The notes below the pieces were generated by a model that saw only the letters and a list, made by a program, of their open reading frames with translations, had not been told where the DNA came from and did not search any database. From Gekko japonicus (Eukaryota): a DNA stretch of 56,074 nt. The position numbers were made by a program, and so were the translations under genes. The stretch is from NCBI RefSeq assembly GCF_001447785.1, contig NW_015175496.1:1-56074 (forward strand). Direction: 5' to 3'. The first letter of the stretch is position 1; every line of letters starts with the position of its first letter. Of the stretch, positions 1,827 to 52,202 are shown piece by piece.

Positions 1827-2065
1827 ATGCGGTGGATGACATGGAGAAAGGAGAGATACTTCTCTGTTTGGATGGTGTTGCTTCACATTATATCCAAAGG
1901 ACATACCAATAAGTGTCTGAGGCATGAAGCCATCCCCGTGCCACACAAATGGTTCCAGTCAGGGGACCTCCTTATTGGTGGGATTGCTTCACAGATTGTC
2001 TATGAACTTCACTCATGCTTTTTCAACGCACAGCCTTCGTCACTAGACCTCTTTGGAGTTCCACA
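1827..2065 (+). pseudogene. Vmn2r: V2R-1 exon 1
   Basis: PVPHKWFQSGDLLIGG; donor CA|GTAAG at 2066; start codon ambiguous. Confidence 0.8.
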
Positions 2066-2246
2066 GTAAGGTTCCCCCCCCCCCACTTTCCAGCTCATGA
2101 ACCCCCGCAATTGTTTATAGAAGCTTCTGTACCACTGTTCAAAAATCAAAATAAAAAGAACCTGCATTGCAAGCCCTAGCAATGCTCCTTTACAACCACT
2201 TTCATCCTTTTCTAAATTCTTTAAATGCTGTGAAGAGTGGGCCTGC

Positions 2247-2568
2247 AGCTGCGGTGGCTCAAGGCTGTGGAAGGTCGGTAGTCCAGCAGTTCGAGACCCG
2301 GGTGCCGCATGATGGAGTGAGCTCCCGTCTCTAGTTCCAGCTCCTGCCAACCTAGCAGTTTGAAAGCGAGAAAATGCAAGTAGATAAATAGGTACCCCTT
2401 CGGTGGGAAGGCAACAGCGTTCCATGCACCTTGGTGTTTAGTCATGCCGGCCACATGACCACAGAAACATCTTCGGACAGAGCTGGTTCTTTGGCTTTGA
2501 AACGGAGATGAGCACCGCAACCCTAAAGTCGGACTCGACTGGCTTTCGAGCAAGGGAACCTTTACCTT
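2247..2568 (+). mobile_element. Sauria SINE
   Basis: GGAGTGAGCTCCCGTC...CCAACCTAGCAGTT core and ACCTTT tail. Confidence 0.85.
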
Positions 2569-2897
2569 ATAGCCACCCACTAAGCTTCATGCTGTGGGGA
2601 TTTGAATCTGTCTTCCTGATCTCAGTCCAGCATTCTAACGTCTACAGCGACTAGTGGTCGCTGGTATCATGATTTCTTCTTCATTCTAACAATGCTGAGA
2701 ATTCATGTTGTCTTGCTTAACATCAAATGTAAACCTACTTAACTCACCTTCTAAAATTTATTTGCATGTCCCTTTCTGCATTGTTCTCACGATCTTCCTT
2801 TTTAAACACAATCAAAGTGTCATAGAATCACAGAGTTGGAAGGGGCCACACAGGCCATCTAGTCCAGCCCCTGCTCAATGCAAGATCAGCCTAGAGC

Positions 2898-3261
2898 AAA
2901 TGGATAAGAGGAAGTACATCTTCACCCAAAGAGTGATTAACACTTGGAATTCACTGCCACAGGAAGTGGTGGCGGCTACAAGCATGGACGGCTTCAAAAG
3001 GGAATTAGATAAGCATATGGAGCAGAGGCCCATCAGTGGCTATTAGCCAGAAGGTATAGATAGGCGCTCTGGGGCAAGTGATGCTCTGTCTTCTTGGTGC
3101 TTGGGGGGGAGGTCAACAGTGGGAGGGCTTCTAATGTCCTGGCCCCACTGCTGGACCTCCTGATGGCACTGGTATTTCTGGCCACTGTGTGACACAGAGT
3201 GTTGGACTGGATGGGCCTTTGGCCTGATCCAACATTGGCATTTCTTATGTTCTTATGTTCT
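2898..3261 (+). mobile_element. CR1 LINE 3' fragment
   Basis: [23 protein letters not shown]...FKRELDKHM; tail (TTCTTATG)n. Confidence 0.9.
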
Positions 3262-3419
3262 GACAAGTGTATATAATCATAGACTCACAGAGTTGGAAGG
3301 AGTCGTACAGTGCATGTGCCTCTCATCACCTTGATCTATTCAGCTTTGAAAATGTCTCCCCCGTTCCTGCCATTTGATTACGTAGTATTCATTTTTTAAA
3401 AAGAATTTCTATCTGTAAG

Positions 3420-3625
3420 TGGTGTTAGTCTGTTGCTGCAAAATTGTAAAAAGCCCAGTAGTACCGTTAAGACTAACACATTTAATTGTAGCATAAGCTT
3501 TTGAGAAACACAGCTCTCTTCATCATCCGAATCCTCCATGCACCTGACAAAGAGAGTTGTGTTTCTCGAAAGCTTATGCTACAATAAAGTTTGTTATTTT
3601 AAAAGTACTACTGGGCTTTTTGCTA
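3420..3625. mobile_element. Long inverted repeat, Penelope-like element remnant
   Basis: Arms AAAAAGCCCAGTAGTAC...TTGTAGCATAAGCTTT and AAAGCTTATGCTACAA...GTACTACTGGGCTTTTT; family assignment is from recall. Confidence 0.6.
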
Positions 3626-4009
3626 TTTATCTGTAAGAGAACACGCAGAAACACATGAAGCTGACTTCTACTGAAGCTACCCTGACTGGCAGTGGCTCTC
3701 CAGGGTCTCAGGCAGATGTTTTACACATCAGCTACTACCTGATCTTTTTTAACTGGCTGCCAGGGATTGAACCTGTGCTTAGTGATATAGAAGTGTACTG
3801 CAGAATGTAATTTTCTTTTTGCATGTAAGTCATATTATGGTCATGAAAAAATAGCACAACTGTGAACCATCACATCCCTGCTTATACACTTTGCTTATAC
3901 AATAAGTTATTTCCACATTTTGTTAGTGTGCAGCAGTGATGAAAAAAGCAAACTCCATGGGATAATTAGGAAAGAGATCTAAACAAAGATTGTTAGGAAT
4001 ATTGTTTGG

Positions 4010-4812
4010 AATATTGTGTACATTCTGGTCACTGTATCGTTAAAAAAGTATTGAAGAGCTGGAAAGAGTACAGAAGAGGGCAACAACGACAACAATTAAG
4101 TGGTCAGAGTGCCTTTCCTATGAGAAAAGCCTAAAGAATCTGAGACTTTTCATTTCAGAAAAAAAATTGACTAAGGGGAGGCATGATAGTGGCTTGTAAC
4201 ATTATACACGGGGTGGTGAAATGGCCAATATTAGAACTTGGGAGGGGAGGTGCAACAAAGAAGTCGATGGGCCATGGATTCAGGATGGACAAAAGGAAAT
4301 ACTTCTTGACTCAGCAGATCGTATAATTATGCAGTTCACTGCCTGAGGACATACTGATGGCTGTGAACATAGATGGTTTTAAAGGGGGCTAAGACAGATT
4401 CCTGGAGAAGAGATTCATCAGTGGAGGCTGGCCATGGTGACTAAATGGAACCTCCTCACTCAGATGCAGTGAATTTCTGAATACTAATGGGGCAGAGAAA
4501 CTGCTTTGCATGCAGACGTTTCCAGGTTCATTTCCTGGCATAGCCAGTTAAAACGATCAGGTAGTGAGTGATGTGAAACATCTCTACCAGAAATCCTGGG
4601 GAACAGCAGACAGTCAGAGTAGACAACGTTGACCTTTGGCCAGTGGTCTGATTCAGTATAATGGAGCTTCATGTGTTCACTGGTGCTAGGAGACAACACT
4701 GGTGGAAGCCTTAAGTTCTATGTTCTTGTTGGTGTCCTTCCAGAGCACCTGCCTGGTCACTGTGTGATACAGGATGCTGGACTAAGTGGACCACAGGCCT
4801 GATCAAGCAGGT
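4010..4812 (+). mobile_element. Old CR1 LINE 3' fragment with nested Squam2-like SINE (~4490-4678)
   Basis: Degenerate version of the CR1 at 34807 (GGAATATTGTGTACATTCTGGTCAC...GAAGAGGGCAAC...). Confidence 0.75.
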
Positions 4813-4970
4813 CACCTCTTCAATTTTTATCTTGTGATGTATAGATGCCTTCTTAGTACATTAAAACTAATGGTTTATATCTATTTATTTATGTTCTTCA
4901 TGTACTATGGGCCAGAAAGCAAATTATTACTGACATGGAACATTCCATTTAGTAGGTAAATGTATCCTGG

Positions 4971-50162: not shown

Positions 50163-50819
50163 ATAGTAGGGTACAAAAAATAATTAAGAAAAAGGAAGTA
50201 GGAACGATTTACAGAATTAACTCACATCAGGAAAGGGTTATCATATCATGCAACGTGTTAAGAAGTCTCTTTTCAAATGGCAAATTGTCCATCTCCAAAA
50301 TGAACAAATGGTTACAGAAAGCTTCAGGTGGGTAGGCACGCTGGTCTCCAGTAGTCTGGTTTATAGGGCAGGTCTTTGCTCCGTCTTCTCCCTTCCTGGT
50401 CCTTCTGGGTGTTCTCCCAACTGATTATTCAGATCCCAGTGGATGCAGGACCTTCCCACCCATACTGCCCCCTCTCTGCTGAGCTCACCCCATGGGAAGA
50501 TGGGCCGGCTCCAGCTTCTTCTCCCTGAACTCAGTCATCGCTGACGCTACCACATCAACTCCCAAAGCCCCTGGGCCGACCCACCTGATCTGAACCTCTG
50601 ATCCACCCTACACCACACCCTCAATGACAGGGCCCAGCCACAATGTCCACCCTGCAGCTGGGCTATAACAGAAGCTGTTGCCCTGGTCCAAGTTGGCTGC
50701 AGCCCACTCCCCAGGCTTGGCTGACTGCTGAGCTGCTGACCAGCAAGGAGATTTGGACATAATGAGCTGTGCTCTCCCCCTCCCTTTATTGTTTGAATTG
50801 TGGGTTCCCATCACAGTAA

Positions 50820-51080
50820 GTAGAGACTGGATTTATACCCTGCCCTTCACTACCAGAAGGAGTCTCAGAGTGCCTTACAGGCTCCTTTCCCTTCCCCTCC
50901 CCACAACAGACACCCTGCAAGGTAGGTGGGGCTGAGAGAGCTCTGAGAGAACGGCCCTTGAGAGAACTGTTCTGAAAGAACTTGTGACTGACCCAAGGTC
51001 ACACCAGCAGCTGCATGTGGAGGAGTGGGGAAATCAAACCTGGTTCTCCCAGATTAGAGTCTGCACTCCTAACCACTATA
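50820..51080 (-). mobile_element. Squam3-like SINE
   Basis: Family motifs in reverse orientation. Confidence 0.75.
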
Positions 51081-51268
51081 AAGAGACCTATAAGTTCCAT
51101 CTGAAGTATGAAATGCATGCACTGTAGACTTATATTGGGTTAATGCTATTTGCCATCACTCCTGATGTCACCCAAATAATCTTTGAACTATAGTTTGGTG
51201 AGTATCCTATCAGAAACCCCTGACTCCTGTCACAGAAGTATAGCTCCCAAAATTCCCTTGGTAGGGAG

Positions 51269-51470
51269 CAATGTTCTAAGCTGTGGAGTCCTGTGGGCAA
51301 AAATTCTACTTTGTGAGCTACTGGCATTAAAGCTGTGAGCGAGTGATTTGGCTACTGCATAAATTAGTTTGCTCTGGAGCGATCCTTCCTGAGCTAAGGC
51401 AAAAATGTGTGAGCCAGAGGCTAAAAAACTGTGAGCTAGCTCACACTAACTCAGCTTAGAGAGAACACTG
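51269..51470. mobile_element. hAT-type MITE (CAATGTTCCCTCTAAG family)
   Basis: TSD GTAGGGAG. Confidence 0.88.
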
Positions 51471-51595
51471 GTAGGGAGACTAGTTCTTGAACCGATTACA
51501 TTCAGTAAAATAGACTATTCATTAAATGTTCTTAATTTCTTGCACTTGGCAATTTGCAGAAGAACTGGCTCAGACAGCTGTCAGCACAGAAAGAG

Positions 51596-51634
51596 GGTTT
51601 TTGCCTGGCTACAAATTCACTTCCTCTCACTGTG
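51596..51634 (-). other. 23-RSS of VH-4
   Basis: CACAGTG + 23 bp + GCAAAAACC. Confidence 0.9.
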
Positions 51635-52079
51635 TGTCTTGCACAGTAATACACAGCCGTGTCTTCAGTTTTCAGGTTGTTCATTTGCAGCTTCAGCAGG
51701 TTGTTGGAATCCTCCCTGGAGATGGTGAATCGTCCTTTCACAGAATCTGAGTAGTAGATGGGGTTTGAAGATGTACTTATATAGGCCAACCACTCCAAGC
51801 CCTTCCCAGAAGCCTGCCTGACCCAGTTAAACCGGTAGCTGCCAAAGGAAAACCCAGAAGCTTGACAAGAAAGTTGGAGGGACTCTCCGGGCCTCTTTAC
51901 ATCCCCTCCAGATTCCACCAGCTGCACCTCTGATAGGATGCCTAGAAAGACAGACAGCCAGATTTTAAATAGATCTGCTGCACAGCTAGATTCAAAATGT
52001 AACAATATTCTATATCAGAAGAACAGAAATCACCTCTAAATACTATTGAGGTGCAAACAAGTTGAAGCCACATCATCAT
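51635..52079 (-). CDS. IGHV: VH-4: complete IGHV segment (clan III)
   Basis: Leader 52079-52034 [18 protein letters not shown] exon 51941-51635 EVQLVESGG...YYCAR. Confidence 0.93.
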
Positions 52080-52194
52080 TTCGAGAGGCTTTGAGAGGGT
52101 TTGACGTGACAGTCCTCACTCACACACACAGGGACCCAAGGTAGCTGGCCCAAGGAGAGTGGAGACCTCCTTTAAACAGGAAAGCGGCCCCTGC

Positions 52195-52202
52195 GTTTGC
52201 AT
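52195..52202 (-). promoter_or_regulatory. Variant octamer of VH-4
   Basis: ATGCAAAC at the homologous promoter position. Confidence 0.75.

Follow-up and report, generated by a model that had tools for sequence, protein, structure and literature searches.

Type 2 vomeronasal receptor genes interleaved with heavy-chain variable genes in Gekko japonicus, probable passengers of V(D)J joining

The window analysed here, bases 1-56,074 of the 101,699-nucleotide (nt) scaffold C15786 of Gekko japonicus, carries type 2 vomeronasal receptor (V2R) genes on the plus strand and immunoglobulin heavy-chain variable (VH) genes on the minus strand. It most probably lies inside the functional immunoglobulin heavy-chain (IGH) locus, where the joining of a variable (V) segment to a diversity-joining (DJ) unit would delete V2Rs, a reading to which we assign a probability of roughly 0.78. 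Locus membership and deletional loss are considered likely because VH polarity is uniform, the VH genes are under selection, and V2R orthologues are numbered beside IgH constant (C) genes in two other geckos. The window would thus represent a piece of a VH region interdigitated with a large, oppositely oriented V2R array, the two having been partly co-duplicated. If, as we infer, D-J-C lies to the left of the window and its four full VH genes (VH1 to VH4) rearrange, joining to DJH any of these, or of the VH genes more distal than these, would remove V2R1 to V2R3 and every V2R nearer to D from the allele concerned. V2R1 to V2R3 would be spared if a more proximal VH were used, and a germline or DJ allele would keep all V2Rs. 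V2Rs act in vomeronasal neurons, which keep the locus in germline configuration. Because these neurons do not rearrange IGH, the somatic deletion of V2Rs in B cells is probably neutral. As for the origin of the arrangement, unequal crossing-over within tandemly arrayed V2Rs on the 5' side of IGH probably carried VH genes along. The opposite strands may help to separate two expression programmes, or may equally have been inherited from one founding cassette.

Interleaving across the genome and the joining cluster

The source assembly comprises 2.49 Gb in 191,500 pieces, and genome-wide tallies used 150 VH candidates (the best of 452) and 131 V2R candidates (the best of 777). Eight scaffolds in this tally carried both gene types and held 35 of the best 150 VH matches, C16948 being a ninth. 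On these eight, 47 of 53 V2R matches were antisense to VH, and among the 22 scaffolds having at least two VH matches (115 matches), not one mixed VH strands. VH genes were found on 8 of the 25 scaffolds having a V2R match at least 72% identical to those of the window and on 0 of the 27 below this value (Fisher p 0.0014, with a threshold picked after viewing the list and the window's own scaffold included in the count). The V2Rs resembling those of the window are those accompanying VH.

On scaffold C7823 (1.8 Mb), a V2R array extends from 1.23 Mb to the scaffold end. VH genes at 1.310-1.355 and 1.414-1.497 Mb, all on the plus strand, point away from the V2R-free flank and into the array, and of the 28 V2R transmembrane exons listed for this scaffold, 24 are located downstream of the first VH, in a span of about 460 kb. 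There are five tandem copies of a tail-to-tail cassette, composed of a V2R and a VH4-like gene, on C7823, a single copy on C16948 and three in the window. The V2Rs of these cassettes do not form one clade, and the V2R1 of the window falls apart from the others in a quick tree, the only kind of V2R tree used in this study. A distinct group of eight tandem VH genes (C7823:1310066-1338807) displays long complementarity-determining regions (CDRs) and a shifted nonamer (scored spacer 22-24) in the recombination signal sequence (RSS). Downstream of several of them, the opposite strand carries a decayed fragment of V2R transmembrane sequence, and the region has the appearance of an older VH and V2R cassette. 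The same RSS signature is shared by one V near D on scaffold C17399. In the outer flank of C7823, open reading frames gave no identity, and METTL3-family matches sit on other scaffolds.

The DH, JH and Cmu segments that the earlier note had proposed to locate were found as a cluster, although on C17399 and not on the scaffold of the window. Their order on C17399 is V-D-J-Cmu, all on the plus strand, with V (4 matches) at 3-18 kb, 22 D-like segments with paired 12-RSSs at 22-81 kb, JH at 85-93 kb and Cmu at 108-113 kb; the VH genes of this scaffold are in deletional orientation relative to D-J-Cmu. An exact JH pattern, which divergent J segments could escape, matched 17 times genome-wide, including 15 matches on C17399 and two on the tiny C68678, and by this pattern a single D-J cluster is available as a joining target. 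The two JH segments at C68678:228-544 are identical copies of the first two of C17399, and C68678 is probably a second haplotype. Within the D cluster, one segment (C17399:34339-34358) combines a 5' RSS of spacer 12 with a 3' RSS of spacer 22, the other 21 3' RSSs having a spacer of 12, so that D-D joining would be allowed under the 12/23 rule. A second 22-spacer RSS occurs at position 29332, behind an apparent V remnant. Further constant genes were located on C10668, where the outer (3') end is flanked by what we take to be KRAB- and SCAN-like motifs and carries no V2R. C1-set matches on C13992 were ruled out by inspection as Ig constant exons.

VH genes of mixed scaffolds are as well preserved as those of VH-only stretches. 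Full-length open VH genes accounted for 47 of 63 and 32 of 40, respectively, and an RSS with at most two mismatches was present in 30 of these 47 and 21 of these 32. Framework dN/dS ratios, obtained with rough CDR borders, ranged from 0.11 to 0.21 in four comparisons of VH1-3 and from 0.36 to 0.50 in three comparisons of VH4. With 47 of 63 genes open and framework dN/dS below 1, the decay associated with orphons was not observed; the VH genes are under purifying selection, and these values fit used genes better than orphons.

V2R arrays are also found away from VH. Scaffold C8388 (1-427000) contains a VH-free V2R array at 1-131 kb, an exon that we take to be ABHD4-like at 281 kb, DAD1 at 298 kb and about 70 segments resembling T-cell receptor (TCR) alpha joining (TRAJ) segments at 327-427 kb. 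About 170 kb separate the end of this array, whose V2Rs belong to the same broad clade, from DAD1, beyond which lies the TRAJ cluster; V2Rs therefore also flank the 3' side of the TCR alpha locus (TRA). A TCR-delta-type identity for the VH genes of the window was considered and rejected, the TRAJ scaffold being devoid of VH.

Gene content of the window

Features of the window are compiled in the table below.

Table. V2R genes, VH genes and VH relics in the window (scaffold C15786; FR3, framework region 3)
Feature	Coordinates	Strand	Description
V2R1	1827..13246	+	six exons; in-frame TGA at 6355-6357 in exon 3
V2R2	15732..25203	+	six exons, all without stop
V2R3	27307..39115	+	six exons, intact, all without stop
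VH1	51596..52202	-	ATG at 52079; octamer-like site at 52195-52202; open V exon; 23-RSS with 1 mismatch, heptamer at 51634
VH2	47119..47609	-	ATG at 47609; leader, intron, open V exon; 23-RSS with 2 mismatches, heptamer at 47157; perfect octamer upstream
VH3	45439..45932	-	ATG at 45932; leader, intron, open V exon; 23-RSS with 1 mismatch, heptamer at 45477
VH4	42778..43417	-	octamer at 43410-43417; ATG at 43280; V exon to 42817; heptamer at 42816; tail-to-tail with V2R3
Relic A	14666..14782	-	decayed VH4-family FR3 fragment; no RSS; between V2R1 and V2R2
Relic B	25794..26127	-	VH4 leader, intron and V 5' end fused to a copy of relic A; no RSS; between V2R2 and V2R3
Relic C	about 45183..45312	-	tandem partial copy of VH3 3' end; near-canonical 23-RSS

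Each of the four full VH genes exhibits a leader, a GT-AG intron and an open V exon with the Cys-Trp-YYC pattern. Judged against the consensus motifs, all four have an octamer 120-137 nt upstream (perfect in two, with one mismatch in two) and a 23-RSS with one or two mismatches on their left, V2R-facing side, that of VH4 being CACAATG/ACAAATACC. Five 23-RSSs with two mismatches or fewer occur in the window; every one is on the minus strand and abuts a V end. In 60 local shuffles the mean was 0.017 and the maximum one. The genes are of heavy-chain type: named matches of VH3 are Ig heavy V sequences (up to 79%), and a divergent V from C7823 matches heavy chains in PDB.

The V2Rs belong to the class C G protein-coupled receptors (GPCRs), as indicated by the six exons of each gene and by the ANF-receptor, NCD3G and 7tm_3 domains of a database V2R protein labelled Gekko japonicus (PF01094, PF07562 and PF00003 on that record), to which V2R3 is identical. 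V2R1, with a single TGA and all remaining exons open, may be a young pseudogene, an allele or a sequence error. V2R2 and V2R3 share 92-100% identity exon by exon, and V2R3 is a recent tandem duplicate of V2R2. The duplication ends inside VH4-family sequence (at about 14725, 26061 and 43348), and the copied unit thus comprised a V2R plus a piece of VH. Relic B, which is 89% identical to VH4 over 25794-26062, marks the junction of this duplication. Intron 3 of V2R3 harbours an additional, diverged copy of the 3' half of exon 3 (33446-33823; 69% amino acid identity) that V2R2 does not have. The RSS of relic C, 256 nt downstream of VH3, is better than that of VH3 itself and may act as a decoy, at which joining would be non-productive.

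Positions 1-55529 contain no N gap, and V2R3 and VH4 are therefore contiguous. The scaffold continues to the right of the window with three further plus-strand V2Rs at 64.5-100.7 kb. The VH block is thus embedded in V2Rs on its left and right, and V2Rs intervene whichever side D-J-C is on.

Several statements of the earlier note can be revised on these data. The minus-strand orientation and left-side RSSs that it described hold for VH1 to VH4; the relics, however, number three and not two, and only relic C has an RSS. Similarly, the VH genes do point toward V2Rs on the left, as proposed, but V2Rs also lie on the right. The window contains no D, J or C segment, in agreement with that note. The suggestion that VH germline transcripts run antisense to the 3' ends of the V2Rs has weakened, as only VH4 lies near such an end, 3.7 kb from the V2R3 stop. 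Poly(A) signals occur 158 nt past the V2R3 stop and 452 nt past the VH4 RSS, and sense VH germline transcripts reportedly end shortly past the RSS (accessible text of PMC3920468). On both grounds, transcripts overlapping the V2R 3' ends are unlikely.

Other squamates and competing explanations

A V2R protein search, taken at the best 120 of 5,841 matches, was compared with VH matches in 12 squamate species. Six of them had a V2R on a record of the same length as that carrying VH: Hemicordylus, Thamnophis elegans, Candoia, Pituophis, Sceloporus and the Komodo dragon, the last on a 343-kb scaffold; where records are of chromosome size, sharing one denotes linkage only. In Crotalus the V2R match was on another scaffold than VH, and five species had no V2R among the best 120. 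Accession numbers presumably follow position within a batch and were used as a proxy for chromosome order. V2R and VH models had close numbers in Hemicordylus (32 apart), Thamnophis (47) and Sceloporus (132, on the side away from C), but not in Candoia (about 300) or Pituophis (about 530). No Gekko kuhli V2R occurred among the best 120 matches; in this species the locus tags are 043640-043692 for C, and 044234 and 044304 for VH.

Two other geckos provided closer comparisons. In Heteronotia binoei, V2Rs 112509, 112511 and 112567 come after the IgH constant model XP_060112508. The first two group with two VH-interleaved V2Rs of C11944 (SH-aLRT 93 and 91), and the third, 59 accession numbers from the C model, is the orthologue of V2R2 and V2R3 (SH-aLRT 96; 81-89% identity in three exons). 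The order C, 112509, 112511 is weakly suggestive of the deletional polarity seen on C11944. In Euleptes, three V2Rs (719665, 719683 and 719697) are numbered 10, 28 and 42 above a V-J-C model (719655).

The core proposal of the earlier note, a position of these V2Rs within the IGH locus and their removal by V-to-DJ joining, gained indirect support from the locus-wide interleaving, the single JH cluster, the deletional orientation of VH on the D-J-C scaffold and the absence of mixed strands on 22 scaffolds. The further claim of that note that V2Rs are lost from every rearranged allele was too strong, as loss requires that the VH used be distal to the V2R.

Several observations weigh against placing the window in a deletional IGH locus. 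The polarity of the window relative to C is an indirect prediction, D-J-Cmu being on C17399; no V2R occurs on that scaffold in the 18 kb upstream of D, and no scaffold joins V2R to D-J-C. On only one scaffold, C10238 (2968-45829), does the VH, a single one, share its strand with the V2Rs, two in number, which makes it a candidate local inversion. Four other V2R matches are inverted; local inversions therefore exist. C12959 carries a VH fragment of 26 residues in the opposite orientation. Arrays devoid of VH are formed by related V2Rs as well (C8388 at 1-131 kb, C13008 and C11368), and C12959 and C1257 have 55-70 kb devoid of V or V2R 5' of the first VH, so that C7823 is not the sole candidate for the distal end. 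In the other geckos, chromosome order is approached only through the accession proxy, a fourth Heteronotia V2R (110662) and a fourth Euleptes V2R lacking C (720638) are far from the respective C models by accession, and the pairing of 112509 and 112511 with the C11944 genes is mixed, exon 2 of 112511 being closer to the other gene. Finally, VH2 matched 0 reads or contigs in all four of the RNA runs compared, out of 15 listed, which amounts to no test. The models listed by a protein search for rearranged gecko heavy chains were genomic multi-V and constant ones, with no rearranged chain of this species among them. As a separate observation on C1257, a mirror-image pair of retroelement-like open reading frames (61481-65049) lies upstream of the first VH and may be an inverted duplication or an assembly fold-back.

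Among competing explanations, the VH genes might be orphons, or a detached satellite cluster moved by V2R duplication, in which case neither rearrangement nor deletion would occur. The missing physical link to D-J-C, the VH4-family copies that ride on V2R duplications (several of them decayed), the VH-free arrays of the same V2R clade, one of them near DAD1 and TRAJ, and, though no test, the lack of RNA matches for VH2 would all fit this explanation. Yet leader, splice sites, octamer and RSS are kept in all four full VH genes, framework dN/dS is well below 1, a detached cluster sits poorly with 35 of the best 150 VH matches on V2R-bearing scaffolds, and the orthologue of V2R2 and V2R3 is numbered close to the Heteronotia IgH C model. 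Orphon status is thus regarded as unlikely. It is also quite improbable that the block lies within IGH and is locally inverted, so that joining would flip the intervening V2Rs and the right-hand V2Rs would be the D-proximal ones. Inversions do occur in the array, as illustrated by C10238 and by the six of 53 V2R matches on the VH strand; bird IGH loci are inversion-rich according to the accessible part of a preprint (10.64898/2026.09.05.749481), and an inversion affecting an entire scaffold would escape notice in these data. Against this stand the 22 multi-VH scaffolds without strand mixing and the uniform plus-strand VH genes at 1.310-1.497 Mb of C7823, and even in an inverted block the V2Rs on both flanks would stay inside the locus. 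An artefact of fragmented short-read assembly, with the VH region spread over at least 57 of the 191,500 pieces, is largely refuted by the gap-free stretch from V2R3 to VH1, the recurrence of the pattern on nine scaffolds in diverged copies (70-89% identity) and the presence of VH and V2R matches on one 343-kb Komodo dragon record.

Beyond the deletional reading that we favour, a broader and rather doubtful extension would have the squamate IGH V region and the V2R array co-evolve as a unit, with V2R duplication driving the birth and death of VH genes and with V2R deletions specific to B-cell clones. It is suggested by V2R promoters that lie head-to-head with VH promoters and antisense to the locus. 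V(D)J joining would then reduce to a few kb the distance between the heavy-chain enhancer and the V2R promoter lying head-to-head just upstream of the rearranged VH, and the V2R expressed by a B-cell clone might depend on its choice of VH; alternatively, V2R promoters might give antisense transcripts like those that PAIR elements supply in mouse.

Relation to known antigen-receptor loci

Passenger genes in antigen-receptor loci are already known; what sets the gecko arrangement apart is the occurrence of V2Rs among IGHV genes at the scale of dozens of genes. No report of V2R-IGHV interleaving was found in the literature searched, which did not extend to subscription papers and preprint supplements (e.g., VGP Supplementary Table 27). 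The term 'vomeronasal' was absent from the accessible text of a Gekkota IgM preprint, the squamate TRE paper, the VGP preprint, an avian IG preprint and a newt TCR paper. Large V2R clusters are described in a varanid preprint, whose accessible part does not mention IGH.

If our reading is correct, the two fastest-changing gene families in a lizard genome share one array, and copy-number changes in chemosensory and antibody V genes are physically coupled, so that selection on one can drag the other. The locus would also offer a natural test of how neuron- and B-cell-specific promoters are kept separate when they alternate every few kb. Some caution would be needed with V2R counts obtained from blood-derived lymphocytes and with IGH lengths derived from V-only annotation, both of which can mislead. 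Somatic deletion of V2Rs has small-scale precedents.

IGH orphons are VH genes located beside unrelated genes, with no D-J-C in view. The gecko VH genes likewise adjoin unrelated genes with no visible D-J-C; they differ in being intact and under purifying selection, and the mixed arrangement spans a large share of the VH repertoire. Ancestral linkage of IGH with the TCR alpha/delta locus has been reported for Xenopus (and newts) in the accessible text of PMC12698447, and is echoed by the gecko V2R array near DAD1 and TRAJ on C8388. In contrast, this array contains no VH, and its tie to the IGH-interleaved array is putative.

Closer parallels are found where other genes lie inside the deletion interval. 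ADAM6 in IGH and the trypsinogen genes between TRBV and TRBD (PMC8945572, accessible text) are non-immune genes needed in other tissues and located within a V(D)J deletion interval; as described there, they are one or a few D-proximal genes lost in nearly every rearrangement, whereas in the gecko loss would depend on the choice of VH, and the genes carried along belong to a receptor family in rapid expansion. Olfactory receptor (OR) genes occur among the distal TRAV segments, including human OR10G2 and OR4E2 and mouse Olfr1507-1509, as well as in sheep and opossum (PMC4574546 and PMC2275272, accessible texts). According to these sources, they too are chemosensory GPCR genes between V segments, removed when a more distal V is used. 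In these cases two to three ORs occupy the 5' tip, between one or two V segments, whereas the gecko V2Rs are found with IGH genes, number dozens throughout the V region, are mostly antisense to it and belong to V2R and VH cassettes that were duplicated together.

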